Of a stretch of DNA of 64,000 nucleotides, positions 13,049-54,637 are shown piece by piece. Positions within the stretch are counted from its first letter, which is position 1. The number at the start of each line of letters is the position of its first letter. Source of the stretch: an uncultured Gammaproteobacteria bacterium (lineage in GTDB: Bacteria > Patescibacteriota > Patescibacteriia > Patescibacteriales > GWC2-42-12); NCBI GenBank assembly GCA_964467155.1, contig CAYXNZ010000005.1:2059-66058 (forward strand). Direction: 5' to 3'. The notes beneath the pieces are model-generated. The model was not told the DNA's origin. It was given only the letters and a program-made list of their open reading frames with translations, and did not search any database. Position numbers and translations under genes: made by a program.

Positions 13049-13064
13049 TTTAGTGAAAAAATAT

Positions 13065-13135
13065 TCGGGGGTCGTCTAACGGTAGGACAGCTGGTTTTGG
13101 TCCAGTCAATCGGGGTTCGATTCCCTGCCCCCGAG
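13065..13135 (+). tRNA. tRNA-Gln (anticodon UUG)
   Basis: Manual cloverleaf: acceptor TCGGGGG/CCCCCGA (U1:A72, G73), anticodon stem GCTGG/CCAGT with loop TTTTGGT, T-arm CGGGG-TTCGATT-CCCTG. CCA is not encoded. Confidence 0.85.
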
Positions 13136-13183
13136 CAGATTTTTTAAAAAAAATATCGTTATTTTAAATTTAATATAAATACT

Positions 13184-36701: not shown

Positions 36702-36718
36702 ATTTCTAAATTTTATAA

Positions 36719-36877
36719 CCCCCACCCCAGCCCCTCCAGAGGCGGGCAGGAGTAAACCGTATAAACGTTACTTCCCCCACCCCAGCCCTCCCCCACAACA
36801 AGTTGCGGGAGAGGGAGCACAACATTTACATAGTTCCCTCTCCCGCGAGGAACGAGCGGGGGAGGGTTAGGGAGAGA
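36719..36877. repeat. GC-rich modular palindromic repeat locus A (MITE-like)
   Basis: Contains module ggcaggagtaaaccgtataaacgtta, the left hairpin ccctccccc-acaacaagttgc-gggagaggg, the centre gcacaacatttacatagt, and the right unit CCCTCTCCCGcgaggaacgaGCGGGGGAGGGTTAGGGA (36836-36873). It ends 1 nt before the mscS stop codon. Confidence 0.8.
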
Positions 36878-37732
36878 CTACTTCCCTGCCTGATGCACCA
36901 CCATCTGTGGAAATGGAATCTCAATCCCCTCTTTATCAAAAGCAATTTTTAATCTTTTGCGGAACTCTCCAGCAACTGCCCATTGTTGAAGTGGTTTGGT
37001 ATCGCCTAATATCTTTACTATTATTGCTGAATCAGCAAACTCATTTACTCGAACAAAATGCGGTGCCTCAATTATAAATTCTTTCCATTCTGAATCATTA
37101 AATAATTCTTGTCCAACTTTATCTATCACTTTTATTAATTTTTCTAAATCAGTATCGTAAGCAACACCTAAATCAATATTTACTCTGGCAAATTCTTTTG
37201 ACAGATTAGCAACCTTGGTAATCTCACCGTGAGGAATATGATGAACTGTACCGTCTAAATCTCGTAAAACCGAAACGCGCAAATTAATATCCTCAACTGT
37301 GCCAGAGATATCTCCAACACGAATGACATCACCAACGCGATATTGATTTTCCAAAATTATAAATAATCCTGAGATAAGATCACGGATTAAATACTGACCG
37401 CCAAAACCAACTGCTAATCCAATAATCCCAGCCGCTGCAATCATCGGTCCAATTTCTACGCCAAACTCAGACACAATCATAATAGCCGCTACTATCCAAA
37501 TAATTAATTTAAGTGTTGTGTCAAAAATCTTGATTAAAGTATCTTCTCTTTTTTTCTCCGCTTCTGGGCTAATAAAATTTTTCGAAACCACTGTTTTTCT
37601 AACAGTTTTTTCAATTAATGAACCACTGAATGTTTTTATCAACCAAGCAACAATTATAATCGCTACTATTTTTAAACCATGAGTAATTAACCACGGTTCA
37701 AGTGTCTTGAATATATTTTCCACAATTTCCAT
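36878..37732 (-). CDS. mscS: Small-conductance mechanosensitive channel MscS
   Basis: 284 aa with 3 TM. The pore helix GLAVGFGGQYLIRDLISGLFIILENQYRVGDVI is present, along with full beta and alpha/beta cytoplasmic domains. Confidence 0.85.
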   Translation of the reverse strand: MEIVENIFKTLEPWLITHGLKIVAIIIVAWLIKTFSGSLIEKTVRKTVVSKNFISPEAEKKREDTLIKIFDTTLKLIIWIVAAIMIVSEFGVEIGPMIAAAGIIGLAVGFGGQYLIRDLISGLFIILENQYRVGDVIRVGDISGTVEDINLRVSVLRDLDGTVHHIPHGEITKVANLSKEFARVNIDLGVAYDTDLEKLIKVIDKVGQELFNDSEWKEFIIEAPHFVRVNEFADSAIIVKILGDTKPLQQWAVAGEFRKRLKIAFDKEGIEIPFPQMVVHQAGK

Positions 37733-37800
37733 ATTTTTTATATTAATTAATAAATAAATTATTAAGCATCGCTATTTTAGTATATCACAAAACCTTTATA

Positions 37801-38260
37801 TTCCCCCACACCAGCCCCTCCAATTCGGAGGACGGGAGAGGGAGCATATATTTATTATAGTCCCCTCTCCCGTGAGGAACGAACGGGGGAGGCCTGCCCG
37901 CCGAATTGGAGGGGTTAGGGAGGTTAAAATAAGAAAAAAAATAACCCCCTTAATCCCCCTTTACAAGAGGGACAAAATAGTTCCCTCTCCCGTGAGGAAC
38001 GAGCGGGGGAGGGGTTAGGGAGGGGGTTTCTTTCACTTTAGTCCACAAAAACCTAGACTAAAGTCTATATTTTAAATTTCTATTCTGTCATTCTGAGGAT
38101 CTTTATAACCCCCACCCCAACCCTCCCCCACAACAAGTTGCGGGAGAGGGAGCACACATTTGCATAGTTCCCTCTCCCGTGAGGCACGAACGGGGGAGGC
38201 CTGCCCGCCGAATTGGAGGGGTTAGGGAGGGGGTCTCTTATCCCCTCCTTCTCCCCTTTC
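37801..38260. repeat. GC-rich modular palindromic repeat locus B (three right-hand units plus accessory hairpins)
   Basis: Right-hand units lie at 37863-37923 (long variant), 37983-38026 (short) and 38170-38233 (long). The accessory hairpin ccccctttacaagaggg lies in 37941-37980. A gtcattctgaggatc module is at 38088-38101. Confidence 0.8.
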
Positions 38261-38666: not shown

Positions 38667-38786
38667 TCCAAAAAATTAATTAATTAAATACTAAATAAAT
38701 CAATTTCCAAAACACACTCATTAGCGTTTAACATATAATTTATTTAATTTAAAAAACGCTAAGTGGTTTGGAATAAGGAAAATATT

Positions 38787-41700
38787 ATGATTAAAAAAAC
38801 TAAAAAAATGAAACTTCTATCAAAGCTTTTTATTATAGCTTTGGTTATTAGCTTTGGCGCTCTAGGTAGTGCTTTTTCACCAATTGAACAAGCGCAAGCG
38901 GCGGCGGATATCACTCTATCAGATGATACCATCAATGAAGGTTCGGAAAATGAAGAATTAATTACTGTCACGTTAGCAGGTGATACCTTTGTTGGTTCTC
39001 TTAATACAGCCAACTGGGCGGTTACCAATCTCCCAGCTGGAGTAGTAAAATCAACTATCTCCAGGACAGACGAAACTACTGTCACGATTGCTTTAAGCGG
39101 TGATAGAGCTGTGGATTATGATACCAGTATTGAAAATGTGACTGTGACAATAGCAGCTGCTGAATTTACAAGTTCTGCAGTCCAAGTTTCAGCAAGCACT
39201 GGCGTAACTTTAGTAGCCACTGCTGACGATGAATCTGTTACTGCTGCCTGGGCAACTTCTCCTGGTACAAGTGGAGCAGAAGCTACAATGGATGCTGAAG
39301 TTCTAACTGTTACCTTAGCTGGCGGTACTTTGATTTCAGAGCAAGTTACTATTGGTAATATCACCGCTACTGGAACAGCTGTTAGTGCAGCAGGAGTAAC
39401 TATTGAAAGTGTTACCTGGACTGATGCCACACACTTTGATGTTGCTTTGGCTTGGACTGCGACAGATTATGACGAAGATAAAACACTTATTATTAATGTA
39501 GCCGCAGCTGCCTATGATGAAGGAGCTATCGCCATTGCTACTGACGAGATTACTCTGACGGCAACTGTTGAGCCAATTGCGATTGCTCTCAGTGACAATA
39601 CTATCGCTGAAGGTTCGGAAAGTGCAGGAGTGATTAATGTGACACTGACAGAAGATACTTTTATAGCAACCTTGGTTCAAGGAAACTGGGCGGTTACCAA
39701 CCTTCCAACTGGAGTAACAAAAGGAACTGTTACCAGGTTGAGCGATACTACTGCTACGATCGCTTTAGTTGGCGACAGAGATGAAGATTATGATACCAGT
39801 ATTACTAACGTGATTGTGACTGTTCAGGCTGGAGACTTGACTCTTTCAGATGCTATAGTCGCTTCAGATGGCACCGGTGTGACCTTAGTAGCCACTGACG
39901 ATGCTGAATCTATTGCAATTACAAATGATGGAATAACAGAAGGCGCAGAAGGTGGCGAAGTTATTACCGTTACTTTAACAGGCGGTACATTTGCAGACCC
40001 ATTAGTCCCAGCAAGCTGGGTAGTTACCAACCTTCCAAGCGGCGTTACAGCTGGTGATCCCGAGAGGACAAGCGCTACAGAAGCCACGATTACTTTAAGT
40101 GGAAACAGAGATGTAGATTATGATTCAAATATTACTGATTTAACAGTAACAGTAGCTTCTGATGACATAGACGATATTGATGTTCCTGTTTCAATAGCTA
40201 CAGGTGTTACATTCACGGCCTCTAATGATGCAGAATCTGTTGCTGCTACTTGGAATGGGGATCCTGGAACTAATGGAGCAGAGGCAACTTTAGATGCAGA
40301 TATAATAACTGTTACTCTTACTGATGGTACTTTTGTTAAAGCTAGTGTGGATAATATTACAATAAGTGCCGGTGCAGGAATAACAAAAGAAAGTGTAACT
40401 TATACCGATTCAACTAATGTAGATATATTATTGGCTTGGGATGGAACAGATTTTGACGATCATGAAACAATAACAGTTAGTGTGCCGGTCACGGCTTACG
40501 CAGATTCAACAAGCGGCGACGCGATTACAGATACAATTAATACTGTTGCAACTGATGATGGTGAATCTATTGCAATTACAAATGATGGAATAACAGAAGG
40601 CGCAGAAGGTGGCGAAGTTATTACCGTTACTTTAACAGGCGGTACATTTGCAGACCCATTAGTCCCAGCAAGCTGGGTAGTTACCAACCTTCCAAGCGGC
40701 GTTACAGCTGGTGATCCCGAGAGGACAAGCGCTACAGAAGCCACGATTACTTTAAGTGGAAACAGAACTGTAGATTATGATTCAAATATTACTGATTTAA
40801 CTGTGACAGTGGCTGCTGGTGACATAGATGATTCTGGCGGCTCTGTTTCAATAGCTACTGGTGTTACATTCACGGCAACTGATGATGGTGAATCTATTGG
40901 AGTTGCCTGGGCAGGAACTCCCGGTACTAATGGAGTAGAAGCGACAATGGATGCTGAAATAGTAACTGTTACTCTATCTGACGGTACTTTGATTGAAGGT
41001 TCGGTTAATGCTACGAATATTACTGCTACTGGAACAGCCGTTGATGATGCTGGAGTAACTATTGAAAGTGCTACTTATGTCGATGCTACAAGTTTTACTG
41101 TCGCTTTGGCTTGGGATGACACGGATTATGATGTTAATAAAATTTTAACTATTAATGTAGCCGCAGTTGCCTACGATGATGCAGGTGGCGCCATCACCGG
41201 AGATATTACTTTGACAGCAACTGTTGAGCCACCTTCGATAGCCTTGACAGACGATACTATCAATGAGGCTGCAGAAACTGGCGAACTGATTACCGTCACG
41301 TTGACAGGTGATACTTTTGTTGAGAGTTTGACTCAAATAAACTGGACAGTCACCAACCTCCCAACTGGAGTATCAAAAGGAACTGTCACCAGGACAGGCG
41401 CTACTACTGCTACGATTGCTTTAAGTGGAAACAGAACTGTAGATTATGATACAAGTATTGAAAATGTGACTGTGACTATTGCAGCCGATGAACTTTATTC
41501 ATATACTCTTGGTTCAATTTTAGCAAGCACCGGCGTAACTTTGGTAGCCGATGCTAGCGCTGAAACTATCGGAGTTGCCTGGGCAGGAACTCCTGGCACT
41601 AGTGGAGTAGAGGTGACTATGGATAGCGAAATCGTAACTGTTACCTTGACTGAAGGTACTTTGATTTCAGATCAGGTTAATATGACTAATATCACCGCTA

Positions 41701-44700
41701 CTGGAACAGCTGTTAATAGCGCGGAAGTAACTATTGAAAGTGTTACTTATACTGACACCACACACTTTAATGTTGCTTTGGCATGGAGTGGACTAAATTA
41801 TGATGTTGAAAAAACACTTACCATTAATGTAGCTGGAGCTACCTATGATGAAGGAACTGATCCTATTACTGACGATATTACTTTGACGGCGACTGTTGAG
41901 CCAACAGTAGAAGTAACCATGGGTGCTAATACTTTTAAGGTTGAAGAATCAACCCTGGTTACATTTACCTTCTCATCAGCTCCAACTGGATTTACAGTTG
42001 ATGATGTGACTACTATTGATAATGGTCTTCTTTCAGGATTCACAGTTACTGGTGATACAAAGATTTACACTGCAACTTTTACACCAACTGATGATACAGA
42101 AGCCGCAACAAATGTTATTACAGTTGGAACTGATTGGACTGATGGCACAAGCGCTCCATTAGCAGGAGATAGTTCTCCTAATTATACTATTGATACGAAG
42201 GAACCAACAATTACTATTACATCAAATGACGAAGCTCTATATACCGGAGATGCTGTCGCCACAATTACTTTTGATATTATTGGAGGCACGGTAGACTTTG
42301 CCCTTGAAGATGTTGTCGCGGTTGGTGGCAATCTTAATGCTTTCACAGAAGTATCAGCTGGAGTTCAATATACTGCTATCTTTACCGCGAGTAACGATAG
42401 TACTACTGGCGCAACAATTAATGTAGCGGCTGGAACATTCACAGATGCTGCTGGAAATAACAATACAGTTGCAATTCAAGAAACAATGACGGTTGATACT
42501 CTTGCTCCAACAATAAATACTGTTACTTCTAATGCTACAGAAACTGGTACATTAAAAGTGGGTGATGCGATTATTTTCACAGTTACACCTACTATCCAAG
42601 AAGCTGGCTTAACTGTTCTTCCTGCTACTTATAATGGAGGTGCTTTATCATGGTCAACTGGCGATAGTGGAGTAACCTATACCGCAACCTATACTGTTGC
42701 AGAAGACCAAACTGACCAGGATCCAGCTTTACAATTATTAGGCGTTACTTTGACAGATGCGGTTAGTAATACTGGCGCTGGTGTTAATGGTACTGATGTA
42801 GCAAAATTGATTGATGCTAATTCACCTGACATAACTTCTGTTACTTCTAATGCTACAGTAGAAGGTACATTAAAAGTAACCGATATGATTGTTTTCACAA
42901 TTACACCTGTTGTTCAAGAAGCTGGCTTAACTGTTGCTCCTACTACTTACAATGGAGGGACATTAGAATGGTCAAGTGTTGATGGAACAACCTATATCGC
43001 AACTTATACTGTTGTAGAAGACCAGGACGATCAGGATCCAGCTTTACAATTAACAAGCGTTACTTTGACAGATGCAGCTGGGAACGATGGTGTTTCTGCT
43101 GATGGCGCCGATGTAGCGAAGAAGATTGATGCTAATACTCCAACCGCAGCCTTTACGGCAGCCACAGATAATGTCGGTTCTGTCATGGGTCCTTTGAATA
43201 CTGGCGACACGACCGATGATACTGAGCTTCTACTTACCGGTGCCAATGAAACCGGTTCGACTGTGGAAGTCTTTAACGGAGCAGCATCGTTAGGCGCAGC
43301 CACAGTTAATGGCACTGGTTGGACTTACTCCGCTACTGTTGTTAATGGCACAACTTATCAATTCAATATTAAAGAAACAGACGCGGCAGGAAATATTAGC
43401 GATGCAACAGATGACTTCACAGTGATAGGAGATACCGCCGCTCCAACAGCCGTAGTTGTAGCCAACGAGGTTGCTATTTATGACAGTGATGCTGGTACTG
43501 ATGCATTTATAATTACTGCAACATTCTCTGAGGCTATGGATAATACAAAGATTCCAACCGTAGTATTCGATGCTGCTTTAGACTCAACTTTAACAAGTCC
43601 AGAAGGTGCTTGGAGTACAGTTGCTCATGATAATGATACATATACCTGGACTTATGATATTGCAGATGCAGGTGTTACAGTTGCAGATGTTGATGTCACT
43701 GTTGATGGTGGTGATGATATAGCAGGTAATGATCAGACTGCTAAAACTAATACAGATTACATTGATGTTGATACAGAAAATCCAACCACAACAATTTCCG
43801 ATGACGAAGATGGCGTAGCCAATATTACCGGTGGCAATATTACTTATACTTTTACCTTCGGTGAAGGTGTAACAGATTTTACTGTTGCTGAAGCTGTTGT
43901 AACGGGTGGTACTAAAGCTGTGGATTTCGCATCAGGTGTTTCTGGTGAGGCCGTCTATACTCTTGTAGTTACCCCAGACTCTGATTCTACAACTAATATT
44001 ACTGTCAATGTCGCCGGTGGCGTAGCTATTGATATAAACGGTAATGACAATGTTGTAGCTGCTGAATCAACACAGACAGTTGATACTCTGAGACCAACCG
44101 TTGGCATTACTGATGATAATGCTGGTACCGTCAATGACGGTAATCCCGAAGTGCTTTATACTTTTGAATTCAGCGAAAATGTTACCGGCTTTACCACCGA
44201 CGATGTCACTGTGACCGCTGGAGGAATCGCAGGCGAATTCAGCGCCACTGATGGCAGCAATACATATACTTTGGCTGTGACTGCGGACGATGGCAGTACC
44301 ACAAATATTAGTTTAACCATTTCTAATGCTGATTTAATTGATGCTAATAGCAATACTATGGCCGCTGATGCGACTGACACCGATCAAGCGGTTGATAGAA
44401 TAGAGCCAACCCTCTCAAGCGCTGCGCGAGATAACAATACACAAATTACTGTTACTCTAAGTGAACTTGCTAATGGAAGTAGCATTACTGATGCAAGTGA
44501 TGGTGGTTTCGTTGTTGCTGAAACTGACGCAGCTGAAACTACTTATGCAGTTTCGGATATCACTCCAGGAGTTACTAACGATTTAGTAGTCTTAACTGTT
44601 GCTGATCTCGGAGTATCTGCTAAAGAAGGCATTACCGTTACTTACTCTTCTGCAAACAACGGAGCCGTAACCGATGTAGCAGAGAATGATCTTGCTACAG

Positions 44701-46454
44701 ACACAACCGGTGTGACAATCGCTGCCTGGGATACGACAGCTCCAACTGTCATAGATGTGACATCTAATTTAGAAGATGGCTCATACAAAGTAGATCAAGT
44801 TGTTGATATTGATGTGACTTTTTCGGAAAATGTTATTTCTTCTGGCGATGTAACTATTACTTTTGATACAGGCGGAACTTGTACTTTCACAGTAGATGAT
44901 TCTGATACTGGAACATGTAACTACACTGTACTTGTAGGACATACCAGCGCTGATCTAACAGTCTCTTCTATTACTGGTGTGGTGAATGATATTGCAGGTA
45001 ATACGCTTGTAGTACCTGCGACACCGACTACAAATCTTGCGGCTAATAAGGCATTCGTTATTGACACAACCGCGCCAGCACTTTCAGTTGATGCTATAGT
45101 TGGTACTACTGTTTCTGAAGCCAATGATACAATCGTCTTGAATTTTGACGGTCCAGTAGTAACACATGATGGCGGAGCTTGGGCGGTTGAAGAATTTGAT
45201 TCTATTTCAGGATCTGAATCCGGCACTCTTGTTCTTACTACTGCAACCTTTGAATATACTAGTAATACATTGACTATTACTCTAGATGAAACAACAGATC
45301 ATGAATACTTAAAAACTGGAGAAACATTAACAGTCAATCCAGCTACTGATAAGATTAAAGATGCCGCTGACAATTCTCTAGTTACAACTGCAGTGGAAGC
45401 GACAAATCCTGTTGGTGGTGATAGTGTAGCCCCAACAATCTCATCCATGGTTTATACCCAAGGGGAAACTACTGTTACCGTTATTAGACCATCAGTATAC
45501 GGTTTAACAACAAGAGTAACTACAACATTTGATGAAGCCATGGAAGAAGGAGTTAAACCTCAAATTGCAATTGATGCGCAGGGAACAAGCGTTGATGTTA
45601 CAGCAACTAATATGACAAAAACATCGAGTACCGTTTGGTATTATGATTGGACCGTCCCAAATATTGATGCTATTCAAGGTGAAGCGACTATTACGCTTAC
45701 AGGAACAGACCTTGCCGGTATTGCCTTTAATTCCGCCTCTACACAAACAGTAACTATTGATGAAAAAAGTCCGGTAATAGCAAATGGTGGAGTTACTTTA
45801 GATAAAGATTCATATAGAATAACTCAAGATGCTAATGTAGAGGTTACTGTGGTTGAAGATAACACTGCTTCAACGATAACTGTAAATGGAGTTTCAGCAA
45901 TTGAGTCTGAAACGGCAGGAACATGGATCGGAACATTTGCTCATGGACAAGTAGCCGTCAGCACTTATTCATTTGATGTTGTCTTGACAGACGCTTATGG
46001 AAATGTAACTACCCAGATGGTTCAATATAGAGTAGTAGCTGATACTGCAACTGAACCAACAGAAATATCTGTTACTACTGCTTTAGTTAAACGAATTGCT
46101 ACTAAAAATGGTGAGTTTGACGATGGTTGGAGATGGGTTTTAGATGTTACTCTTCCAACTGCTTCAACAACTTTAAGTATGAGTTTTGATGATTTGACTG
46201 GTGCTGGAACGATTGATGCTACTAATATCCGTTTCTATTCAGCTGAATCTGACCATACTTCTGCCGGTCCAATAGTAATTGCGGCATCAGGAGCTGGTAC
46301 AGAATGGTCAGAAAGCATACTTCTCGATACTGATTTATATTCTAATATTGCTGGTAGACAAATTCAGATTACTGTCCAAGCCGCTGTTCCAGAAGGTAGT
46401 ACTAGCGGTGCCTATTCTGCCAGTTATGACATTCAAGCCAGTTTAGTGGAATAA
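38787..46454 (+). CDS. Giant repeat-rich secreted surface protein (S-layer/adhesin-like), 2555 aa
   Basis: AAGGA RBS 8 nt before the ATG at 38787. Signal peptide MIKKTKKMKLLSKLFIIALVISFGALGSAFSPIEQAQA. About 8 N-terminal ~110-aa modules (..NWAVTNLPxGV..T.TR...T.ATIALSGNR.VDYD..I.N.TVT..) alternate with a second module type. These are followed by many ~95-aa bacterial Ig-like modules (TxDTxxPT...FSE.V.GFT..D........). The protein is T/A/V/D-rich and has no Cys. Confidence 0.85.
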   Translation: MIKKTKKMKLLSKLFIIALVISFGALGSAFSPIEQAQAAADITLSDDTINEGSENEELITVTLAGDTFVGSLNTANWAVTNLPAGVVKSTISRTDETTVTIALSGDRAVDYDTSIENVTVTIAAAEFTSSAVQVSASTGVTLVATADDESVTAAWATSPGTSGAEATMDAEVLTVTLAGGTLISEQVTIGNITATGTAVSAAGVTIESVTWTDATHFDVALAWTATDYDEDKTLIINVAAAAYDEGAIAIATDEITLTATVEPIAIALSDNTIAEGSESAGVINVTLTEDTFIATLVQGNWAVTNLPTGVTKGTVTRLSDTTATIALVGDRDEDYDTSITNVIVTVQAGDLTLSDAIVASDGTGVTLVATDDAESIAITNDGITEGAEGGEVITVTLTGGTFADPLVPASWVVTNLPSGVTAGDPERTSATEATITLSGNRDVDYDSNITDLTVTVASDDIDDIDVPVSIATGVTFTASNDAESVAATWNGDPGTNGAEATLDADIITVTLTDGTFVKASVDNITISAGAGITKESVTYTDSTNVDILLAWDGTDFDDHETITVSVPVTAYADSTSGDAITDTINTVATDDGESIAITNDGITEGAEGGEVITVTLTGGTFADPLVPASWVVTNLPSGVTAGDPERTSATEATITLSGNRTVDYDSNITDLTVTVAAGDIDDSGGSVSIATGVTFTATDDGESIGVAWAGTPGTNGVEATMDAEIVTVTLSDGTLIEGSVNATNITATGTAVDDAGVTIESATYVDATSFTVALAWDDTDYDVNKILTINVAAVAYDDAGGAITGDITLTATVEPPSIALTDDTINEAAETGELITVTLTGDTFVESLTQINWTVTNLPTGVSKGTVTRTGATTATIALSGNRTVDYDTSIENVTVTIAADELYSYTLGSILASTGVTLVADASAETIGVAWAGTPGTSGVEVTMDSEIVTVTLTEGTLISDQVNMTNITATGTAVNSAEVTIESVTYTDTTHFNVALAWSGLNYDVEKTLTINVAGATYDEGTDPITDDITLTATVEPTVEVTMGANTFKVEESTLVTFTFSSAPTGFTVDDVTTIDNGLLSGFTVTGDTKIYTATFTPTDDTEAATNVITVGTDWTDGTSAPLAGDSSPNYTIDTKEPTITITSNDEALYTGDAVATITFDIIGGTVDFALEDVVAVGGNLNAFTEVSAGVQYTAIFTASNDSTTGATINVAAGTFTDAAGNNNTVAIQETMTVDTLAPTINTVTSNATETGTLKVGDAIIFTVTPTIQEAGLTVLPATYNGGALSWSTGDSGVTYTATYTVAEDQTDQDPALQLLGVTLTDAVSNTGAGVNGTDVAKLIDANSPDITSVTSNATVEGTLKVTDMIVFTITPVVQEAGLTVAPTTYNGGTLEWSSVDGTTYIATYTVVEDQDDQDPALQLTSVTLTDAAGNDGVSADGADVAKKIDANTPTAAFTAATDNVGSVMGPLNTGDTTDDTELLLTGANETGSTVEVFNGAASLGAATVNGTGWTYSATVVNGTTYQFNIKETDAAGNISDATDDFTVIGDTAAPTAVVVANEVAIYDSDAGTDAFIITATFSEAMDNTKIPTVVFDAALDSTLTSPEGAWSTVAHDNDTYTWTYDIADAGVTVADVDVTVDGGDDIAGNDQTAKTNTDYIDVDTENPTTTISDDEDGVANITGGNITYTFTFGEGVTDFTVAEAVVTGGTKAVDFASGVSGEAVYTLVVTPDSDSTTNITVNVAGGVAIDINGNDNVVAAESTQTVDTLRPTVGITDDNAGTVNDGNPEVLYTFEFSENVTGFTTDDVTVTAGGIAGEFSATDGSNTYTLAVTADDGSTTNISLTISNADLIDANSNTMAADATDTDQAVDRIEPTLSSAARDNNTQITVTLSELANGSSITDASDGGFVVAETDAAETTYAVSDITPGVTNDLVVLTVADLGVSAKEGITVTYSSANNGAVTDVAENDLATDTTGVTIAAWDTTAPTVIDVTSNLEDGSYKVDQVVDIDVTFSENVISSGDVTITFDTGGTCTFTVDDSDTGTCNYTVLVGHTSADLTVSSITGVVNDIAGNTLVVPATPTTNLAANKAFVIDTTAPALSVDAIVGTTVSEANDTIVLNFDGPVVTHDGGAWAVEEFDSISGSESGTLVLTTATFEYTSNTLTITLDETTDHEYLKTGETLTVNPATDKIKDAADNSLVTTAVEATNPVGGDSVAPTISSMVYTQGETTVTVIRPSVYGLTTRVTTTFDEAMEEGVKPQIAIDAQGTSVDVTATNMTKTSSTVWYYDWTVPNIDAIQGEATITLTGTDLAGIAFNSASTQTVTIDEKSPVIANGGVTLDKDSYRITQDANVEVTVVEDNTASTITVNGVSAIESETAGTWIGTFAHGQVAVSTYSFDVVLTDAYGNVTTQMVQYRVVADTATEPTEISVTTALVKRIATKNGEFDDGWRWVLDVTLPTASTTLSMSFDDLTGAGTIDATNIRFYSAESDHTSAGPIVIAASGAGTEWSESILLDTDLYSNIAGRQIQITVQAAVPEGSTSGAYSASYDIQASLVE
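39906..40109 (+). repeat. Exact 204-bp intragenic repeat, copy 1
   Basis: Base-for-base identical to 40563-40766 (checked by eye). The offset of 657 bp equals 219 codons. Confidence 0.9.
40563..40766 (+). repeat. Exact 204-bp intragenic repeat, copy 2
   Basis: Identical to 39906-40109. Near-identity continues for ~40 bp further downstream. Confidence 0.9.
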
Positions 46455-46503
46455 ACCAAAATGATAACTTCTAATTTGTTAATAAATTAATATATATTAT
46501 GAT

Positions 46504-48252
46504 ATGAAAATACATAAAATTATCTTTTTGGTTACTCTAGGGCTATTGTTAACCGCTTCAACTTGTCTTGCTACCTGGACAATCGATAACGGTATTAGTA
46601 CTGGTAGTGGTGAAGCCATTACTGCTTACGAACCCGTTGCTAGTCCAGCTGCAGGAACATATCATGCTACCCAAAGTGTTATTTTAACAGCTACTGACGC
46701 TTCAGCTATTTGTTATACTATCGATGATAGTGATCCAGATTGCGCGACTGCAACTACTTGTAGTACTGGTACGGTTTATGATTCGGCTATTTCCGTGACC
46801 TTAACGGATACTATTAAAGCTATTTCTTGTTATGATGATAATAGTTATGTTTCTAAGTCTACTGTTGCTACTCATACTTATACTTTAACCTGCACAACCA
46901 GCAGTGTAACCAACGGAACAGTTGGAGCTTATTCGGGTTGTGCTGTTACTTGTAATTCTGGTTATACTTTGAGTGGTAGTACCTGTGTTACTTCCGGCGG
47001 AGGTGGCGGAAGTAGTGGTGGCTCTACAGCTACTGTACCAACCACACAACAAACTTCCATTACAACTACTGATGGAACACAAGTAACTACTTCAACTGAT
47101 ACTACTGGCGGAACCGCTACTGCTACTATTAATACTGTTTCATCCCCTACTAATAGCCAAACAGTTACCCTAGATACTTCCACTGTTGCTGATGCAAGCA
47201 GTGTTTCTGTTGAACTATCTGCTTTAGTTATGCAGGAGCTGGTCGCTGATCATGGCGCTGACATAGACTTAACCGTTAATATTACTAGTCAAACTGCTTC
47301 CTCTGACCAAAGAACAAGTACTGCTCTAGGTACTGGTACATTTTTAGTCGGTCTTGATGTTTTTAATGTAGAAATTCTGGCTGGAGACACTTCTATTACC
47401 AATTTTGACAATCCGCTAACTCTTTCTTTTGATGTTTCAGATATACCAAACCCAGAAAATTTAACTATCTCTTGGTTTGATACAACGCAAAACAAATGGG
47501 TGGATTTAGGTGGTACTCTATATGATGGTGTGCTAACAATTACTGTTAATCACTTAACTGACTTTGCAGTTATTAGAACAGGCACTACTACTGAAACTAC
47601 ACCTGCTACTACCCCTGAAACCAGTCCTACCGCTACCGTCACTACACGTGAACAACAAATCGTAAATATCTTAAATGAATCTTCTCTGATTTTTGATAGT
47701 GGTTATGATTTGACCAATTTACTATCTCATAATGGAGTAGCAGAAAATGCAACCGAACAAACTGCTAGCATGGAAAAATATACCAATACTTTAACTGCCG
47801 ACATGACTGACCTGACAACTGAAAATACTTACTCAATCAACAACTTTATTCTTTATGGTACTCAAACCACGAGAGTATTAGGCGCTGGTGAAAGAGCTGG
47901 TGTGGTTAATTCCTATAAATCAGCCTTTGATAAATTACCAACTACCGCTGATGAATGGGCTGATGTCATTAAAATCGGTAATGGTCGCTGGCCAAGCGAG
48001 GCTAGTCAAACTGCCGAAGATCGAGCAAAAATTAGCTTCAATACAATTTACTTGCGTGAAGCAGACATGGCTAATCCAAATGATAATGCCGCTGTCACCG
48101 TTATGGCCTACGGACTACGACCGGATGCGAGAAATTTAGACAGTGAGAAAGTCGCCATTAAAACCTTCAAAGCAATCTTTGGTTACAACCCAGTCGAAGC
48201 AACTTCTTGGGATGCAGTCAGAGCTATCGCCTACTCAGGTGCTGTGAGATAA
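46504..48252 (+). CDS. Secreted protein with N-terminal chitobiase/hexosaminidase-C-like (Fn3-associated) domain and a conserved C-terminal domain
   Basis: 582 aa with a signal peptide. PAAGTYHATQSVILTATDASAICYTIDDSDP is the typical CHB_HEX_C-like pattern. There are T/S/G-rich linkers. The C-terminal part is ...GAGERAGVVNSYKSAFDKLP...GNGRWP...WDAVRAIAYSGAVR. Confidence 0.75.
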   Translation: MKIHKIIFLVTLGLLLTASTCLATWTIDNGISTGSGEAITAYEPVASPAAGTYHATQSVILTATDASAICYTIDDSDPDCATATTCSTGTVYDSAISVTLTDTIKAISCYDDNSYVSKSTVATHTYTLTCTTSSVTNGTVGAYSGCAVTCNSGYTLSGSTCVTSGGGGGSSGGSTATVPTTQQTSITTTDGTQVTTSTDTTGGTATATINTVSSPTNSQTVTLDTSTVADASSVSVELSALVMQELVADHGADIDLTVNITSQTASSDQRTSTALGTGTFLVGLDVFNVEILAGDTSITNFDNPLTLSFDVSDIPNPENLTISWFDTTQNKWVDLGGTLYDGVLTITVNHLTDFAVIRTGTTTETTPATTPETSPTATVTTREQQIVNILNESSLIFDSGYDLTNLLSHNGVAENATEQTASMEKYTNTLTADMTDLTTENTYSINNFILYGTQTTRVLGAGERAGVVNSYKSAFDKLPTTADEWADVIKIGNGRWPSEASQTAEDRAKISFNTIYLREADMANPNDNAAVTVMAYGLRPDARNLDSEKVAIKTFKAIFGYNPVEATSWDAVRAIAYSGAVR

Positions 48253-48410
48253 AGCTTGCTTGTCCGCCGAAGCTTTAGCGTAGGCGGAGGATGCAGTCAG
48301 AGCGATTGCCTATTCAGGAGCTGTAAGATAAAGCTTGCTTGTCCGCCGAAGCTTTAGCGTAGGCGGAGGATGCAGTCAGAGCTATCGCCTACTCCGGAGC
48401 TGTGAGATAA
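48253..48410 (+). repeat. Two tandem 79-bp units, each a 37-nt GC hairpin spacer plus a copy of the last 13 codons and stop of the upstream gene
   Basis: Spacers at 48253-48289 and 48332-48368 are identical (TCCGCC-N14-GGCGGA). Tail copies at 48290-48331 and 48369-48410 still encode DAVRAIAYSGAVR-stop. Confidence 0.9.
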
Positions 48411-48488: not shown

Positions 48489-48700
48489 ATCCCCCTCCCT
48501 AACCCTCCCCCACCTCGCCGATTCGGCGGGCGGGAGAGGGAGCACGCGTTTGCATAGTTCCCTCTCCCGTGAGGAACGAGCGGGGGAGGGTTAGGGAGGG
48601 GGAAAATCCCCTCTCTTTTTTGTCATTCCCGCGAAAGCGGGAATCCCTGCCCGCCGGCAGGCAGGCAGGAGTAAACTGTATAAACGTTATTTGTTCCATT
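48489..48700. repeat. GC-rich modular palindromic repeat locus C (112-bp MITE-like unit with perfect 21-bp terminal inverted repeats, plus accessory hairpins)
   Basis: ccccctccctaaccctccccc (48491-48511) is the exact reverse complement of gggggagggttagggaggggg (48582-48602). The inner arms are cgggagaggga / tccctctcccg. Downstream lie the hairpin attcccgc-gaaa-gcgggaat (48625-48644) and the module ggcaggagtaaactgtataaacgtta. Confidence 0.85.
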
Positions 48701-48929
48701 TCATATCATGTAATAAATCTCTCCAAGTTGGATTTTCTTTTTTATACTCCATATTTCTACTGCTCTCTCCTGGATCCCCAGTCAAGCTGAGGATGACAAG
48801 CAGAGATTTATTTGTTCCTTAGTTGTACCTAGAGTATAAATGCCAATGATTATTTAGACATTATTTATTCTTTAGACGGTTTGCATTAAAAGCTCCAGTT
48901 AAAAACTGGAGCTAGCGAGGTAACCTAAA

Positions 48930-49101
48930 TACGTCCCCTCTCCCGTGAGGAACGAGCGGGGGAGGGTTAGGGAGGGGGAAGAAATAAAAATTAAAATAAC
49001 CCCCTCAATCCCCCTTTGCAAGGGGGACAAATACGTCCCCTCTCCCGTGAGGAACGAACGGGGGAGGCCTGCCCGCCGGATTGGAGGGGTTAGGGAGGAG
49101 G
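48930..49101. repeat. GC-rich modular repeat locus D (two right-hand units plus the ccccctttgcaaggggg hairpin)
   Basis: Units lie at 48936-48978 (short) and 49038-49101 (long, with a nested cctgcccgccggattggag insert). The hairpin lies in 48996-49030. The locus ends directly at the ftsX stop codon (49102-49104). Confidence 0.8.
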
Positions 49102-50706: not shown

Positions 50707-52311
50707 TTATTGTGTTAATCTCAATAATCCAAATTTAGCTAAATCTTCTGCTTCAAAGAAACTATTATTTCTAGAATTAGCATTCAAGACGACAACTATG
50801 ACTTTGTTATTCCCCTGCTCTGCTCTCAACATTAAACAATAACCCGCCTCATCTAAATATCCGGTTTTTGAACCAGTGATATTTAAATTACTAATATGAA
50901 TTAATAGATTTGTATTTCTAAGTGTATGTTTTTCCTCGGTGTTAATGGTGTAAAAAACATATCTACCCATAGTGCTAGCTTTTTGGATTATGGGATGCTT
51001 AAACAATTCTTTTGTTATTATAGCATAATCCAAAGCTGAACTCACGTTTTCCGGTGATAAACCTGTCGGTTCTACAAATTTAGTAGATACTGTACCCCAA
51101 TTTTTAACCGCTAAATTCATTTGATTAATAAATTCGTCTCTAGCTAGACCACTAACTCTAACCAATGACTCAACTGCATTATTAGCTGACCCGACTAAAG
51201 CCGAATAAACCAAATCTTCAATCGTCAAAGTGTCGCCGTCATTTAATGTCACGCGTGCTGATTCCCATTTATTGCAATATTGATAATTGTATTCCTCATC
51301 TTTAACGCTATAACTTACTTCCCTACTCAATGTTGGACGCATATCCAAAAACACCTTTATCGCCACTAATTTTGTTAAACTAGCAATCGGCAAAGTAGAC
51401 GTAGCTTTCTTTTGCCATAGCACTTCCATTGTAGATTCATCCAATAAAACAGCTGAAACAGCCCCCACGCTAGGATTAAATTCCGCACCAATTTCTGAAA
51501 TACCCAAAACACGTCCATTATCAGAAGCTGTTTCCAGAGACTCTATTCTTACATTAATAATGCCCGCACCAAGTGAAGCAATTTGTTTAAAAGCTACTTT
51601 GTCTAAATCGACCACTCTGTTAGGATGTAATTTTCTTTCTGGACCAAAATCATTAACTTCAACGTCAACAAATTTGTTATTATCTGTATTATAAACCCTT
51701 ATTTTTGAACCTTTTGGAAAATCTGGAGAAGCTGTGTAATTTCCGCCTTTGTAACCATACCAACTTGCCTGACCGATTGCTAAAACATCAGGATTAGAAA
51801 AAACAGCTATTCTGGCAAATGGCAAATGGATCAATGATCTGACAAATTTTTCATCAGGATAATCTTTGGTTGGTAAAGGTCGCCAAGTTGAATAATTTTT
51901 ATCAAAAAAATAAACCTGTTTTAAATAATTAGATTCGTCTTCATATGAAAATTGAATATAAAAAGGTTTATGATCGTCATAGGCTTCTTTATTTTTAAAT
52001 TCAAACTGATAAATATTACTTAATTTTTCTAATTTCCAAGACACATCAATTGTTTCGTTTAGTTTGACAACATCAACGCCTGTCGCCTCGCTTAAAATAC
52101 CCGGCACTAATGACAATTTTATCGAATTATCAAACGCTGAAACAGTATAACCCTTAGCTATCGTCGATTGATCTAAATTAATATGATAAAATTTATTTAA
52201 TTCTTCTGCAATTATTTCTTCACTAGCCACAACAAAATTACCAGCTACAACAGCTAGTAAAATTAAAAATAATAATAAAAATCTTTTCCACATTTGACTG
52301 AATATATACAT
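50707..52311 (-). CDS. Secreted fusion: RlpA-like double-psi beta-barrel domain + D-alanyl-D-alanine carboxypeptidase (peptidase S11)
   Basis: Signal peptide. The RlpA-like segment is GQASWYGYKGGNYTASPDFPKGSKIRVYN..VDVEVNDFGP. The S11 motifs SLTK (SxxK), SANN (SxN) and KTGY (KTG) are present. Confidence 0.8.
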   Translation of the reverse strand: MYIFSQMWKRFLLLFLILLAVVAGNFVVASEEIIAEELNKFYHINLDQSTIAKGYTVSAFDNSIKLSLVPGILSEATGVDVVKLNETIDVSWKLEKLSNIYQFEFKNKEAYDDHKPFYIQFSYEDESNYLKQVYFFDKNYSTWRPLPTKDYPDEKFVRSLIHLPFARIAVFSNPDVLAIGQASWYGYKGGNYTASPDFPKGSKIRVYNTDNNKFVDVEVNDFGPERKLHPNRVVDLDKVAFKQIASLGAGIINVRIESLETASDNGRVLGISEIGAEFNPSVGAVSAVLLDESTMEVLWQKKATSTLPIASLTKLVAIKVFLDMRPTLSREVSYSVKDEEYNYQYCNKWESARVTLNDGDTLTIEDLVYSALVGSANNAVESLVRVSGLARDEFINQMNLAVKNWGTVSTKFVEPTGLSPENVSSALDYAIITKELFKHPIIQKASTMGRYVFYTINTEEKHTLRNTNLLIHISNLNITGSKTGYLDEAGYCLMLRAEQGNNKVIVVVLNANSRNNSFFEAEDLAKFGLLRLTQ

Positions 52312-52396
52312 AACAATATAATTATATCATAAATAATTATAAGCTACGAAATAAAATATTTCTAAACTTAAAATTTTGCAAATTTTAGACAAATTT

Positions 52397-52611
52397 GCGG
52401 GTGTCGTATAATGGTTATTACATCAGCTTCCCAAGCCTAATAAAAATAAATATGCAGGATTAGTACAATGGTAGTACATTTGCTTCCCAAGCAAGAAACA
52501 CGAGTTCGATTCTCGTATCCTGCTCAATCCGGCAGGCAGGCAAGCTGAGAAAGCCAGTCCCCTGCCCGCTCGTGCCTCGCGAGAGGCAGGCGGGGATTCT
52601 GGTCACCCGCT
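52397..52611 (+). pseudogene. Disrupted tRNA-Gly(CCC): the 5' part (52397-52436) and 3' part (52544-52611) are separated by an insertion that contains an intact tRNA-Gly; a 37-nt hairpin sits in the T-loop
   Basis: The 5' part is GCGGGTG-TC-GTATAATGGTTATTAC-A-TCAGC-TTCCCAA-GC. The 3' part is GCTGA-GAAA-GCCAG-T[hairpin 52559-52595]ATT-CTGGT-CACCCGC-T. The acceptor and anticodon stems are complementary across the gap. CAAGC occurs at both junctions. Confidence 0.7.
52454..52524 (+). tRNA. tRNA-Gly (anticodon CCC)
   Basis: Manual cloverleaf: GCAGGAT/ATCCTGC acceptor, D-arm GTAC-AATGGTA-GTAC, anticodon stem TTTGC/GCAAG with loop TTCCCAA, T-arm ACGAG-TTCGATT-CTCGT. CCA is not encoded. Confidence 0.85.
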
Positions 52612-52620
52612 CAAATATAA

Positions 52621-52693
52621 GCCGACCTAGCTCAACTGGTAGAGCAACGGTATCGTAAACCGTAGGTTGTGGGTTCAATTCCCACGGTCGGCT
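52621..52693 (+). tRNA. tRNA-Thr (anticodon CGU)
   Basis: Manual cloverleaf: GCCGACC/GGTCGGC acceptor, D-arm GCTC-AACTGGTA-GAGC, anticodon stem ACGGT/ACCGT with loop ATCGTAA, T-arm GTGGG-TTCAATT-CCCAC. CCA is not encoded. Confidence 0.85.
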
Positions 52694-52700
52694 CAAATAA

Positions 52701-52820
52701 ACGGTATCGCCCGCCCGCAACGACTTACGTCTTGCGGAAGTCGAGCGGGTAAACCGTAGGTTGTGGGTTCCCTGCCCGCTCGTGCCTCGCAGAGGCAGGC
52801 GGGAATTCCCACGGTCGGCT
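52701..52820 (+). pseudogene. Partial tRNA-Thr copy A (anticodon stem to 3' end) with a 40-nt hairpin inside the anticodon and a 33-nt hairpin in the T-loop
   Basis: ACGGTATCG[52710-52749]TAAACCGTAGGTTGTGGGTTC[52771-52803]AATTCCCACGGTCGGCT. Apart from the two inserts it is identical to tRNA-Thr positions 27-73. Confidence 0.8.
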
Positions 52821-52827
52821 CAAATAA

Positions 52828-52947
52828 ACGGTATCGCCCGCCCGCAACGACTTACGTCTTGCGGAAGTCGAGCGGGTAAACCGTAGGTTGTGGGTTCCCT
52901 GCCCGCTCGTGCCTCGCAGAGGCAGGCGGGAATTCCCACGGTCGGTT
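52828..52947 (+). pseudogene. Partial tRNA-Thr copy B (second 127-bp tandem unit)
   Basis: Same structure as copy A, with inserts at 52837-52876 and 52898-52930. There is one C>T change in the acceptor 3' strand (GGTCGGT). Confidence 0.8.
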
Positions 52948-52954
52948 CAAATAA

Positions 52955-53047
52955 ACAGTGCTGGATCCGGGCTTTGTCCGGAGCTATAGTGAAATTTTAC
53001 CCGTCCGAATCCGCCAACTGGCGGAATATGCGGGCCCACGGTCGGTT
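52955..53047 (+). pseudogene. Third, more degraded tRNA-Thr 3'-end remnant preceded by other GC hairpins
   Basis: Ends in CCCACGGTCGGTT (the T-stem 3' strand plus acceptor). Upstream are the hairpins TCCGG-gctttgt-CCGGA and TCCGCC-aact-GGCGGA (53010-53025). Confidence 0.55.
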
Positions 53048-53065
53048 CAGAAATAATCATATAAT

Positions 53066-53098
53066 AAAAAATAATCCATGAAAAATGGATTATTTTTT
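53066..53098. terminator. Bidirectional rho-independent terminator
   Basis: aaaaa-ataatccat-gaaaa-atggattat-ttttt. Confidence 0.7.
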
Positions 53099-53107
53099 AT
53101 TATATGA

Positions 53108-54637
53108 TTATTTCACTAAACTAAAAATTTTAGCATTTCTTATTTGATTATCTATATATTCATTAAAACTTAACCCTTTTACAAAAATAAATCTCAAACC
53201 TGAAGAATTTTCTCTTTGTCCGTATTTAAATAAAATATAATAACCATTATCTTTAATAATAACTTCACTGATTTGATTTACTTCTAAACCCAAAGCCACC
53301 CTGCCAAATCGTTCCAAAATATCATTTTCATTTAGATAATCGCCATAACTAGAACTATCTGCGTATTTTTTTACTTCATCAATAGTTTGGCCTAATTGCA
53401 TTTTCTTTCTCATGTCATTAATTCTAGCTATACCGATTTGATTATAATCTTCATCCATTAAAAAATTAGAATTTAATATTTGTTCGAGAGGTTTTTGAGA
53501 AATTTTTGTCAAAAAATATTTTTCTGTAAATTCTTTTATTATTAAATCTTTTATCATCTTGTTATCCATGACTTCTGATGCAAATTGGGAATATTGATTA
53601 TCATATTCTTTTACATAGTCAATATAATCATAAAAATCTACTGAACCAACATTACTTACAATTGCTGGGATAAAAATATAATCATTAATTTTTCTTAAAC
53701 ATTTGTTGTCAATCTTAAAAATTATTAATAATGAAAAAAGTATAAAATATAAAAATATAAAAATAATCAAAATCATTATCAAAAACTTAAAAAAAAATTT
53801 TTTGGCTTTATACAAAAACCTAATTCCATAAAAAAGTGTTGTTGTTACCCAATTTTTAATATTTAACTTTAAAGCCTTTAATTTTCGAATTCTTCTATTT
53901 TTATTTCTTCGTCTGTCTTTGGTCTTTTTTTTCATTGCTTCTATCTTTATTCCCACCTCTATTTCAGTTTTCTCTTTTTTTTCCCGCTCCAACTGCTCTT
54001 TAGCTAATTGTTTTTGTCTCGCTATACCTACTTTTAACTTTATTTTTCCTAATTTTAAATCTTCTCTTTTTTTTAATCTCTTTTCTTCTTCCTCTCTTTC
54101 TCGCTTTTTTAATTCTTCTTTTATTCTTTCCTTTTCTCTTTTTTCTCTCTCTTTCTTTCTGGCTTGTTTCTCTTTTTTTATTTTTTTATCTTCTTCATTT
54201 TTTAATTTTTCTTCCAATATTCTTGTTTTTTGTGCTTTTTCTATTTCTTCTTTTTTTCTTTCGATAACCTCTTTTTCTTCTTGATGTCTTTTATTCTCTT
54301 CATCTAAAATTTTTTTTCTAGCATCTCTTTGTTTTTCAATTGCCTCTTTTATTCTTTCCTTTTCTGCTCTTTCGTTTAATGCCTTTTCTTCTTGCAATTT
54401 TTTCTGTTTTTCTTTTTCAATAATCTTTTCCTGACGTTTTAGCTCTGTCTTCATTTTTTCTTTTTCTTCCTTTGACAAAACACCATCAACCTTAGAGATT
54501 AACTTCTTCTGTGAATCTTTTGACAATAAATTCTTCCTCGTCTTGTCTTGCTCGCCAATATATTTCAATAAGACATTTCTTGATTTTTTTAATTCTTCCG
54601 AATTTATTTTTTTTATACTATCAACGTCTTTGTTCAT
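53108..54637 (-). CDS. Membrane protein with K/E-rich cytoplasmic N-terminus and extracytoplasmic parvulin/PrsA-like (PPIase-like) domain
   Basis: 509 aa. About 240 aa of charged coiled coil are followed by one TM (FLIMILIIFIFLYFILFSLLIIF). The C-terminal ..YADSSSYGDYLNENDILERFGRVALGLEVNQISEVIIKDNGYYILFK resembles a degenerate PpiC-type domain. Confidence 0.55.
   Translation of the reverse strand: MNKDVDSIKKINSEELKKSRNVLLKYIGEQDKTRKNLLSKDSQKKLISKVDGVLSKEEKEKMKTELKRQEKIIEKEKQKKLQEEKALNERAEKERIKEAIEKQRDARKKILDEENKRHQEEKEVIERKKEEIEKAQKTRILEEKLKNEEDKKIKKEKQARKKEREKREKERIKEELKKREREEEEKRLKKREDLKLGKIKLKVGIARQKQLAKEQLEREKKEKTEIEVGIKIEAMKKKTKDRRRNKNRRIRKLKALKLNIKNWVTTTLFYGIRFLYKAKKFFFKFLIMILIIFIFLYFILFSLLIIFKIDNKCLRKINDYIFIPAIVSNVGSVDFYDYIDYVKEYDNQYSQFASEVMDNKMIKDLIIKEFTEKYFLTKISQKPLEQILNSNFLMDEDYNQIGIARINDMRKKMQLGQTIDEVKKYADSSSYGDYLNENDILERFGRVALGLEVNQISEVIIKDNGYYILFKYGQRENSSGLRFIFVKGLSFNEYIDNQIRNAKIFSLVK

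Follow-up and report, generated by a model that had tools for sequence, protein, structure and literature searches.

All three tRNA genes in a 64,000-nucleotide stretch of genomic DNA from an uncultured bacterium (contig CAYXNZ010000005.1, positions 2,059 to 66,058; hereafter the window) are adjoined by partial tRNA copies that carry small GC-rich hairpins. The hairpins occupy places that are single-stranded loops in the arms of the cloverleaf, and the intact genes are free of them. One of these inserts, a 33-nt palindrome that we call X, is present in more than 115 near-identical copies in genomes from several bacterial phyla. The account that we favor, with reserve, is that pseudo-copies and pieces of superseded tRNA genes lying beside the working genes have been colonized by insertion elements, very small GC-rich palindromes that together form a superfamily. 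The locus with the tRNA-Thr array is best read as the Gly-Thr tRNA operon of an ultra-small, Falkowbacteria-like Patescibacterium. Since the G+C content of the window is only ~33%, the GC-rich hairpins are conspicuous in it.

A tRNA-Thr gene followed by hairpin-split partial copies

ARAGORN and the Rfam tRNA model recognize three tRNA genes in the window: Gln(UUG) at 13065-13136, Gly(CCC) at 52454-52525 and Thr(CGU) at 52621-52693. The tRNA-Thr gene is intact (52621-52693/4 with ARAGORN; 68.9 bits with the Rfam model), lies on the plus strand, as do the tRNA-derived parts of the window described below, and is followed by the trailer CAAATAA (52694-52700). Two tandem units of 127 bp come directly behind it. 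Unit A (52701-52827) repeats tRNA-Thr positions 27-73, which with their inserts occupy 52701-52820, plus the trailer CAAATAA; unit B (52828-52954) has the same composition, its tRNA part with inserts spanning 52828-52947 before the trailer. Tandem Repeats Finder reports a period of 127 with 2.2 copies and 99% matches over 52677-52956, and a separate repeat search returned two 127-nt copies with 100% identity. The sole difference between units A and B is a C>T change, 52819 versus 52946.

Each unit is interrupted twice. A 40-nt hairpin, H1, splits the anticodon loop between ATCG and TAA, with a placement that is ambiguous by one base (52710-52749 in unit A, 52837-52876 in unit B). The 33-nt X splits the T-loop between TTC and AATT (52771-52803 and 52898-52930). 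The inserts in the Thr loops measure exactly 33 and 40 nt, with no duplicated bases; the 64 kb contain no further match to either hairpin, for each of which shuffled controls give an expectation of 0. An older remnant of a unit, beginning ACAGT, extends over 52955-53056. It contains a small hairpin around 52965-52986 and a composite hairpin, H3 (53000-53034; CCCGTCCG...GCGGG), that encloses the mini-hairpin TCCGCCAACTGGCGGA (53010-53025), and its last segments are a tRNA 3' end, CCCACGGTCGGTT (53035-53047), and then the trailer CAGAAATAA. The locus holds a fourth copy of the tRNA 3' end, CCCACGGTCGGTTCA at 53035-53049, preceded by other hairpins. The initial annotation, made from the sequence alone, had described the intact gene with its two tandem units, the hairpins splitting the anticodon and the T-loop, and a more degraded 3' end behind other hairpins, and every one of these sequence statements held when the region was re-examined with ARAGORN, Rfam, Tandem Repeats Finder and the repeat search. 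Because the Thr units lack positions 1-26, they cannot yield a tRNA.

A broken tRNA-Gly gene with the same insert at the same position

A second, broken tRNA-Gly(CCC) gene, Gly*, precedes tRNA-Thr. Its 5' half (52397-52436, positions 1-40 of the old gene, ending CAAGC) is identical to the 5' part of an intact tRNA-Gly at L127, a related locus with 80% protein identity. The anticodon loop is occupied by a 104-nt block (52437-52540), AT-rich in its left part and ending in the 12-mer CCGGCAGGCAGG (52529-52540), which recurs at 48654-48665 within another GC-rich palindrome. This block is bounded by a 5-nt direct repeat CAAGC (52432-36 and 52541-45) and carries the intact tRNA-Gly(CCC) at 52454-52525, whose sequence differs from that of Gly*. 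The 3' part of Gly* runs from the anticodon loop to CACCCGCTCA (52541-52613) and bears in its T-loop, between TCC and GATT, a 34-nt copy of X with one extra base (X', 52561-52594).

That the same T-loop hairpin sits at the equivalent place in the broken tRNA-Gly had been proposed from the letters, and it does. ARAGORN calls a tRNA-Gly(CCC) here once 52437-52540 and 52561-52594 are both removed, and makes no call if X' is retained. At L127 the Gly* gene is uninterrupted, with a T-loop TTCAATT, and no second tRNA-Gly is present; this orthologue fixes the X site in Gly* at 56/57, the same as in the Thr units. Including a third tRNA-like scaffold at the related locus L135, X is thus found at T-loop position 56/57 in three tRNA scaffolds.

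Introns were considered for these inserts and rejected. The Thr units without positions 1-26, the bacterial host and the lack of any Rfam intron hit for the 33-40-nt inserts speak against both an archaeal bulge-helix-bulge intron and a bacterial group I intron, and ARAGORN recognizes Gly* only if the 104-nt block, which contains another tRNA, is taken out as well.

The tRNA-Gly(CCC) genes of this clade come in two sequence types. In the window and at L129 one type lies inside or beside the anticodon-loop break of the other; L127, L128 and L155 have one type only, and L152 and L153 only the other. This looks like the replacement of one tRNA gene by another, which may have proceeded through insertion at a common anticodon-loop sequence.

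Hairpin-bearing fragments in the window and in related genomes

The third tRNA gene of the window shows the same association. Directly upstream of the intact tRNA-Gln(UUG) lies a 5' partial copy of it (13003-13050) that breaks in the anticodon loop and in which an 18-nt hairpin, TCCGCCTATATTGGCGGA (13014-13031), replaces the D-loop. Across the window, all seven matches to CCCGC-N10-40-GCGGG fall in tRNA fragments, against 0.06 expected by chance, and so do both TCCGCC-N-GGCGGA mini-hairpins (one in H3 and one in the partial tRNA-Gln; chance expectation 0.01). The inserts also resemble one another at their ends: X, H1, H3 and the inserts of relatives have CC(C/T)GCCCGC as a common 5' end and GCGGG as a common 3' end, the terminal pair CCCGC...GCGGG being found in X, X' and H1 and a shorter CCCG...CGGG in H3.

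Hairpin-bearing tRNA fragments are present in relatives as well, with other members of the hairpin family. At L135, where the flanking gene is ~75% identical as judged by eye, tRNA-Thr is followed by a tRNA-like 3' fragment whose T-loop is split by X at TTC|AACT, and then by a single Thr unit whose H1 is identical at 35 of 40 positions and whose T-loop insert is a homologue of H3. L127 carries a CCTGCCCGCCATCGCC element within the D-arm of a tRNA-Thr copy at the contig end. L129 (70% protein identity) has no Thr unit; it has a tRNA-Gly 5' half that stops in the anticodon loop against CCGCCTGCC, and, at 6910-7075, an orthologous 5' fragment of tRNA-Gln that bears several more GC-rich hairpins, TCCGCCAGCTGGCGGA among them. 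L153 contains a tRNA-Gly T-arm pseudo-copy with a composite of ~75 nt, CCTGCCCGCC...GGCGGGGC, in its T-loop. At L155 a hairpin abuts a 46-nt repeat that extends from the tRNA-Gly T-loop into the trailer, and tRNA-Thr is followed by a run of Ns and then a T-loop-to-trailer copy.

Because H1, H3 and the boundary at position 27 are common to the window and L135, the insert-bearing unit is older than their split. Since that split the two components of the unit have fared differently: H1 differs at 5 of 40 positions, with changes that break pairs without compensation, while the tRNA-derived parts are 100% identical between the window and L135, and identical to the working gene. We read this as decay of the hairpins alongside gene conversion with the adjacent selected gene, which would homogenize the tRNA-like parts; constraint on these parts may also account for their identity. 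Outside this locus the only H1 found is the diverged copy at L135. An exact core match was absent from viral contigs and from metagenome contigs, a weak negative as that collection evidently lacks the JGI contigs holding the locus, and blastn-short found no H1 among the 119 X-bearing loci.

The extent of the copies recalls the scars left by integrative elements at attachment (att) sites. Tyrosine integrases use tRNA genes with crossovers in the anticodon loop or T-loop, the known sublocations of tRNA att sites agree with the extent of these copies, which span the anticodon stem or T-loop through the 3' end into the trailer (54 nt here, 46 nt at L155), and tandem accretion of elements produces such repeat arrays; the tandem att repeats would be what remained of a series of integrations and deletions, and the hairpins would then have come later or with the element. 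We regard this origin as improbable. No integrase or transposase domain and no gene of an integrative element was found in the 35 of 47 window ORFs (open reading frames) of at least 120 aa that were scanned with Pfam, all genes flanking the array included, and 0 nt lie between one unit and the next. For Gln and Gly it is the 5' part of the gene that is copied, an outcome foreign to att duplication. The loops in which a crossover would take place are also those split by the hairpins, and an att core so interrupted would be destroyed.

Another possibility is that the fragments are functional parts of the tRNA transcript, as processed small RNAs, as processing or decoy sites for RNase P or RNase Z, or as stabilizing or terminating structures, by analogy with the rtT RNA of E. 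coli. A candidate promoter for the operon, TTGACT-17-TATAAT (52294-52322, plus strand), is a consensus match only, at 11 of 12 positions, and lies 75 nt 5' of the first tRNA-derived base. At the other end, the repeat search detected a perfect 30-bp AT-rich inverted repeat without strand assignment (53050-53114), a putative terminator that a consensus terminator scan misses because its stem has too few G-C pairs; the locus at L135 and that at L129 also end with comparable hairpins. With a terminator at this place, the entire array would lie between tRNA-Thr and the transcript end and would probably be co-transcribed. The perfect conservation of the tRNA-derived segments between the window and L135, the retention of tRNA-Gln and tRNA-Gly fragments in a relative at 70% protein identity, and the E. 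coli precedent of three 178-bp repeats, the last overlapping the tyrV 3' end and annotated as rttR, are likewise consistent with a function. Against it stand the uncompensated decay of H1 at L135, the variation in kind, number and position of the hairpins among relatives, to the point that L129 has no Thr units, the variation in copy number between assemblies and the absence of an Rfam match, only tRNAs being found at the gathering threshold and only chance-level hits at E<=10. X, moreover, is plainly the same element as the one found in unrelated genes elsewhere. We hold a function of the fragments to be rather unlikely, slightly more so than an origin as att scars.

Number of units

The same locus, with identical flanking DNA next to the S11-peptidase gene, occurs on seven other metagenome contigs, assembled by JGI, ENA or Logan. 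A single unit is present on four (L001, L003, L004 and L125); it ends with the T variant, and their intergenic distance is 670 bp versus 797 bp in the window. L002 stops inside the unit and L005 stops exactly before the C/T base, while L126 starts downstream of the array, within the tRNA-Gly region, and is uninformative on unit number.

One might suspect from these four assemblies of the identical locus, and from the coincidence of the 127-bp period with a commonly used largest k-mer size, that the second unit is an assembly artefact and that the genome has one insert-bearing unit; this would concern the tandem arrangement only and would be compatible with colonization of the partial copies by insertion elements. 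We think it unlikely, though less so than the att and functional explanations. The length 127 is the sum 54 + 40 + 33 and is present in the one-unit version too. The junction between units, which runs from X through the C-variant 3' end and the trailer to H1, has no source in a one-unit genome, the stretches shared by the tRNA gene and the unit being only 10-21 nt. Units A and B have an exact 145-nt stretch in common, which exceeds the largest k-mers in common use, so that short-read assemblers are expected to collapse the units or to break the contig, and the end of L005 before the C/T branch and that of L002 inside the unit are the behavior expected of an unresolved repeat. From the junction we infer that at least two units are probably real in some genomes, while the number differs between assemblies.

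X is a discrete element of wide distribution

The consensus of X is CCTGCCCGCTCGTGCCTCGCAGTGGCAGGCGGG, 33 nt long, with the ends CCTGCCCGC...GGCAGGCGGG and a predicted folding energy of -18.8 kcal/mol. More than 119 exact matches to an X 19-mer were found in GTDB contigs representing one genome per species; two of these, in genomes of 70% GC, are chance matches. Across 120 copies in unrelated contexts the boundaries are sharp: information content is near 2 bits over all 33 nt, first C through last G, and drops to near zero outside them. Of the copies listed, 65 of about 118 are identical to the consensus. The X of the window is a T>A variant that recurs at L038, L042, L052, L054, L070 and L075. 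Among the matches listed, the hosts are mostly Desulfobacterales and other Thermodesulfobacteriota, accompanied by a Parcubacteria-group genome, Saccharibacteria, Berkelbacteria, Microgenomates and other Patescibacteria, a Nitrospinaceae genome and an Actinomycetota genome.

Most copies are intergenic. About 15 are in frame deep in long ORFs, in which every reading frame of X is used. The element is 3 x 11 nt long and all six of its frames are open, so that it is probably translated, adding 11 residues that depend on the frame (e.g. PARSCLAVAGG, PPATARHERAG or RLPLRGTSGQ). The ORFs that hold it match Pfam families of leucyl-tRNA synthetase, UvrB, RNA polymerase beta, anaerobic ribonucleotide reductase, tRNA-guanine transglycosylase and Mur ligase, as well as a tyrosine recombinase, an M16 peptidase and an HtrA-type protease. 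Examples of in-frame copies are those in leuS (L075, 4974-5006), uvrB (L080, 6806-6838), rpoB (L122, 3743-3775), nrdD (L067, 1111-1143), tgt (L086, 2411-2443) and the mur ligase gene (L101, 6723-6755); the leuS, uvrB, nrdD and tgt hosts are labelled Berkelbacteria, Parcubacteria group, Desulfobacterales or just 'bacterium'. For nrdD, a single pair of filled and empty sites could be compared: the gap is exactly 33 nt and a target duplication is absent. This pair, together with the sharp 33-nt ends of 120 copies, bears out the suggestion that the T-loop hairpin is a discrete, transposable-looking element and not a product of local decay. X has no match in Rfam, and we found no prior description of it in the literature by sequence, encoded peptide or topic.

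The idea that X is an adaptor or another artefact was rejected. The element is internal to contigs of many independent projects, has point variants, is nested in other repeats and is reproduced at the tRNA locus in the seven other assemblies.

At four loci (L040, L069, L074 and L077) X lies beside a similar ribosomal-protein operon (L3/L4/L2/S19), and the metagenome-assembled genomes concerned are labelled differently, as Patescibacteria, Desulfobacterales, Actinomycetota UBA9087 and Microgenomates. Either some bins are mislabelled or the site is common.

Insertion preference and a possible mechanism

The contexts of X, collapsed to 67 to remove redundancy, show a tendency toward palindromic surroundings. 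The two flanks of X pair together at -15 kcal/mol or lower in 31% of contexts versus 8% of controls (p about 1e-7), and X is often nested in other GC-rich palindromes, to three levels at L006. Since flank pairing is enriched and tRNAs are avoided, X tends to lie between complementary arms and shows no affinity for tRNA genes in general. When metagenomes were scanned for X directly behind TTC, 20 loci were obtained, of which about 12 contain true X, and the only T-loop among these is the homologue of the window locus; excising X from all loci produced no new tRNA calls with ARAGORN (13 before, 13 after). The proposal of structure- or site-specific insertion therefore stands within this lineage and as a tendency toward palindromic context, where a search for the hairpins elsewhere found complementary flanks, and falls as a general preference of X for tRNA loops.

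Under the reading that we favor, some enzyme would copy the elements in trans into DNA able to extrude hairpins, of which tRNA-gene loops and the apices of other palindromes would be examples. Insertion into a single-copy tRNA gene would be lethal, and the survivors would be genomes that had kept or gained an intact copy; with such lethality only insertions into spare copies would be observed. The hairpin-bearing fragments would then be junk that is transcribed along with the operon. Their tRNA-derived parts would be kept identical to the working gene next to them by gene conversion or unequal crossing-over, and unequal exchange could be the source of the 127-bp tandem duplication.

A more ambitious version appears to us possible but doubtful. 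It holds that the X family consists of active, horizontally spreading elements of 33-40 nt, rendered harmless to genes by a length divisible by three, the lack of stop codons in all six frames and insertion without target duplication, which insert in single-stranded hairpin loops, that their main targets in streamlined Patescibacteria are the loops of the tRNA cloverleaf, and that the hosts survive by partial duplication or replacement of the gene. If so, a hairpin-split tRNA fragment would be left beside each tRNA gene.

Several results weigh against colonization by insertion elements. None of the about 118 X copies listed in other genomes is inside a tRNA, and the X site falls within a predicted hairpin loop in 24% of the 67 contexts versus 20% of control positions, a difference that is not significant; as X avoids tRNAs elsewhere, the association with tRNA genes is lineage-specific. 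A mobilizing enzyme was not found in searches around X copies. RAYT is the tyrosine transposase associated with repetitive extragenic palindromic (REP) sequences; a single-sequence phmmer search with the E. coli RayT over partial genomes, about 0.8 Mb around X copies with 3278 ORFs in all, returned nothing at E<=10. Clustering of 1607 ORFs around X, all against all, brought out housekeeping families only and no protein family that recurs next to the element. X is also absent from phage genomes and plasmids and, both as the window variant and as the consensus 19-mer, from the viral contigs of IMG/VR, so that it has no evident route between phyla. The fragments persist between lineages whose neighboring protein is ~70% identical, a longer survival than neutral DNA should have in a streamlined genome, which leaves room for function.

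The chromosomal neighborhood

The genes around the array are chromosomal, with Pfam matches to FtsE, FtsX, DivIC, a P-type ATPase and an RlpA-S11 peptidase; the nearest homologues of the S11 peptidase are from Candidatus Falkowbacteria and other Patescibacteria. The array is bordered by a 509-aa ORF on the minus strand (53108-54637) without a Pfam match, within which lies a C/T-rich low-complexity tract with periods of ~8 and ~34 nt (54062-54261). At L129/L131, the relative at 70% protein identity, a gene matching the Pfam family 23S_rRNA_IVP (4639-5040) is found between the S11 peptidase gene and ftsE, where the window has no gene.

The spacer between tRNA-Gly and tRNA-Thr contains, in some relatives, a small ORF whose product ends in ...HPYEEPAIDIMPRYDIV. 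Other relatives retain just the final codons of this ORF (whole or remnant, it was seen at L152, 959-1291; L155, about 1060-1120; and L129, about 2760-2790), and the window has lost it. Whole, remnant or gone depending on the genome, it marks the tRNA-operon spacer as a site of repeated gene loss.

Elsewhere in the window, clusters of further GC-rich palindromes, nested in one another, occupy 36716-38222 and 48490-49095. Among these palindromes are seven copies of CCCTCTCCCGTGAGGAACGAGCGGGGGAGGG(TTAGGGAGGGGG), some of them interrupted by CCTGCCCGCCGAATTGG, as well as CCTGCCCGCCGGCAGGCAGGCAGG. The clusters lie on the flanks of an MscS gene and bracket two ORFs of 2563 and 582 aa (38763-48252), in a region whose G+C of 0.40-0.46 is above that of the rest of the window. 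A tandem pair of a ~80-nt unit (AAAGCTTGCTTGTCCGCCGAAGCTTTAGCGTAGGCGGAGGATGCAGTCAGAGC...) begins at the stop codon of the 582-aa ORF (48250-48410).

Significance and comparison with known systems

If mobile, X would be among the smallest spreading elements known, one that crosses phyla and enters rpoB, leuS and uvrB. Such behavior would bear on the persistence of selfish DNA in the most reduced bacterial genomes and on the origin of insertions in conserved proteins of uncultivated lineages. The tRNA locus would be a case of such elements meeting single-copy essential RNA genes, with intact and hit copies side by side, an uninterrupted orthologue and variation in copy number. In practical terms, such hairpins break short-read assemblies at tRNA loci and can be misread as tRNA introns or as novel protein insertions.

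Four kinds of mobile or repeated palindromes resemble X. REP sequences and the REPINs that they form, mobilized by RAYT, are GC-rich imperfect palindromes of 20-40 nt that occur in many non-coding copies, often clustered or nested. X differs in lacking a GTAG or CGTC tag at either end, in being near-identical across phyla whereas REPs are species-specific, and in its about 15 in-frame copies in conserved genes whereas REPs are extragenic; the single-sequence search over partial genomes found no RAYT-like gene near about 118 copies. Rickettsia palindromic elements (RPEs) share with X the tolerated in-frame insertion into protein genes and the presence in RNA genes, but measure about 100-150 bp and are confined to Rickettsia, whereas X has 33 nt and occurs in several phyla; no sequence relation between them is known to us. 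The GC clusters and byp elements of yeast mitochondria are also short GC-rich hairpins that spread in an AT-rich genome, into coding and RNA genes alike. They are organellar and belong to another sequence family, and ribosomes skip byp, whereas X is probably translated. Miniature inverted-repeat transposable elements (MITEs), like X, are non-autonomous, dispersed and nestable and have short terminal inverted repeats (CCCGC...GCGGG in X), but X is several-fold smaller than the bacterial MITEs described and shows no target-site duplication in the nrdD pair; we know of no parent insertion sequence for it.

For the array itself, the closest likenesses are two kinds of tRNA-associated repeats. The 178-bp repeats distal to tyrT-tyrV of E. 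coli, the source of rtT RNA, which we re-checked in strain K-12, are also tandem units in the distal part of a tRNA operon, each with a tRNA 3' end; they comprise only 19 tRNA nucleotides, without hairpin insertions in tRNA loops, and the Rfam RtT model does not match the array. The direct repeats at tRNA att sites likewise contain the tRNA 3' part including the gene end (here positions 27-73 plus the 7-nt trailer), but the array departs from them in having no integrase among the scanned ORFs, no DNA between units, 5' fragments at other tRNAs and inserts in the presumed crossover loops.

A miniature palindromic insertion element is in itself a known kind of thing, although X and its kin fail a defining feature of each of the systems named: the tag and extragenic site of REPs, the target duplication of MITEs and the lineage restriction of RPEs. 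If they are active insertion elements, they would at 33-40 nt be smaller than any known to us. Their size, near-identity across phyla and gene-compatible design, together with the recurrent pairing of working tRNA genes with hairpin-split fragments in this Patescibacteria clade, look new.

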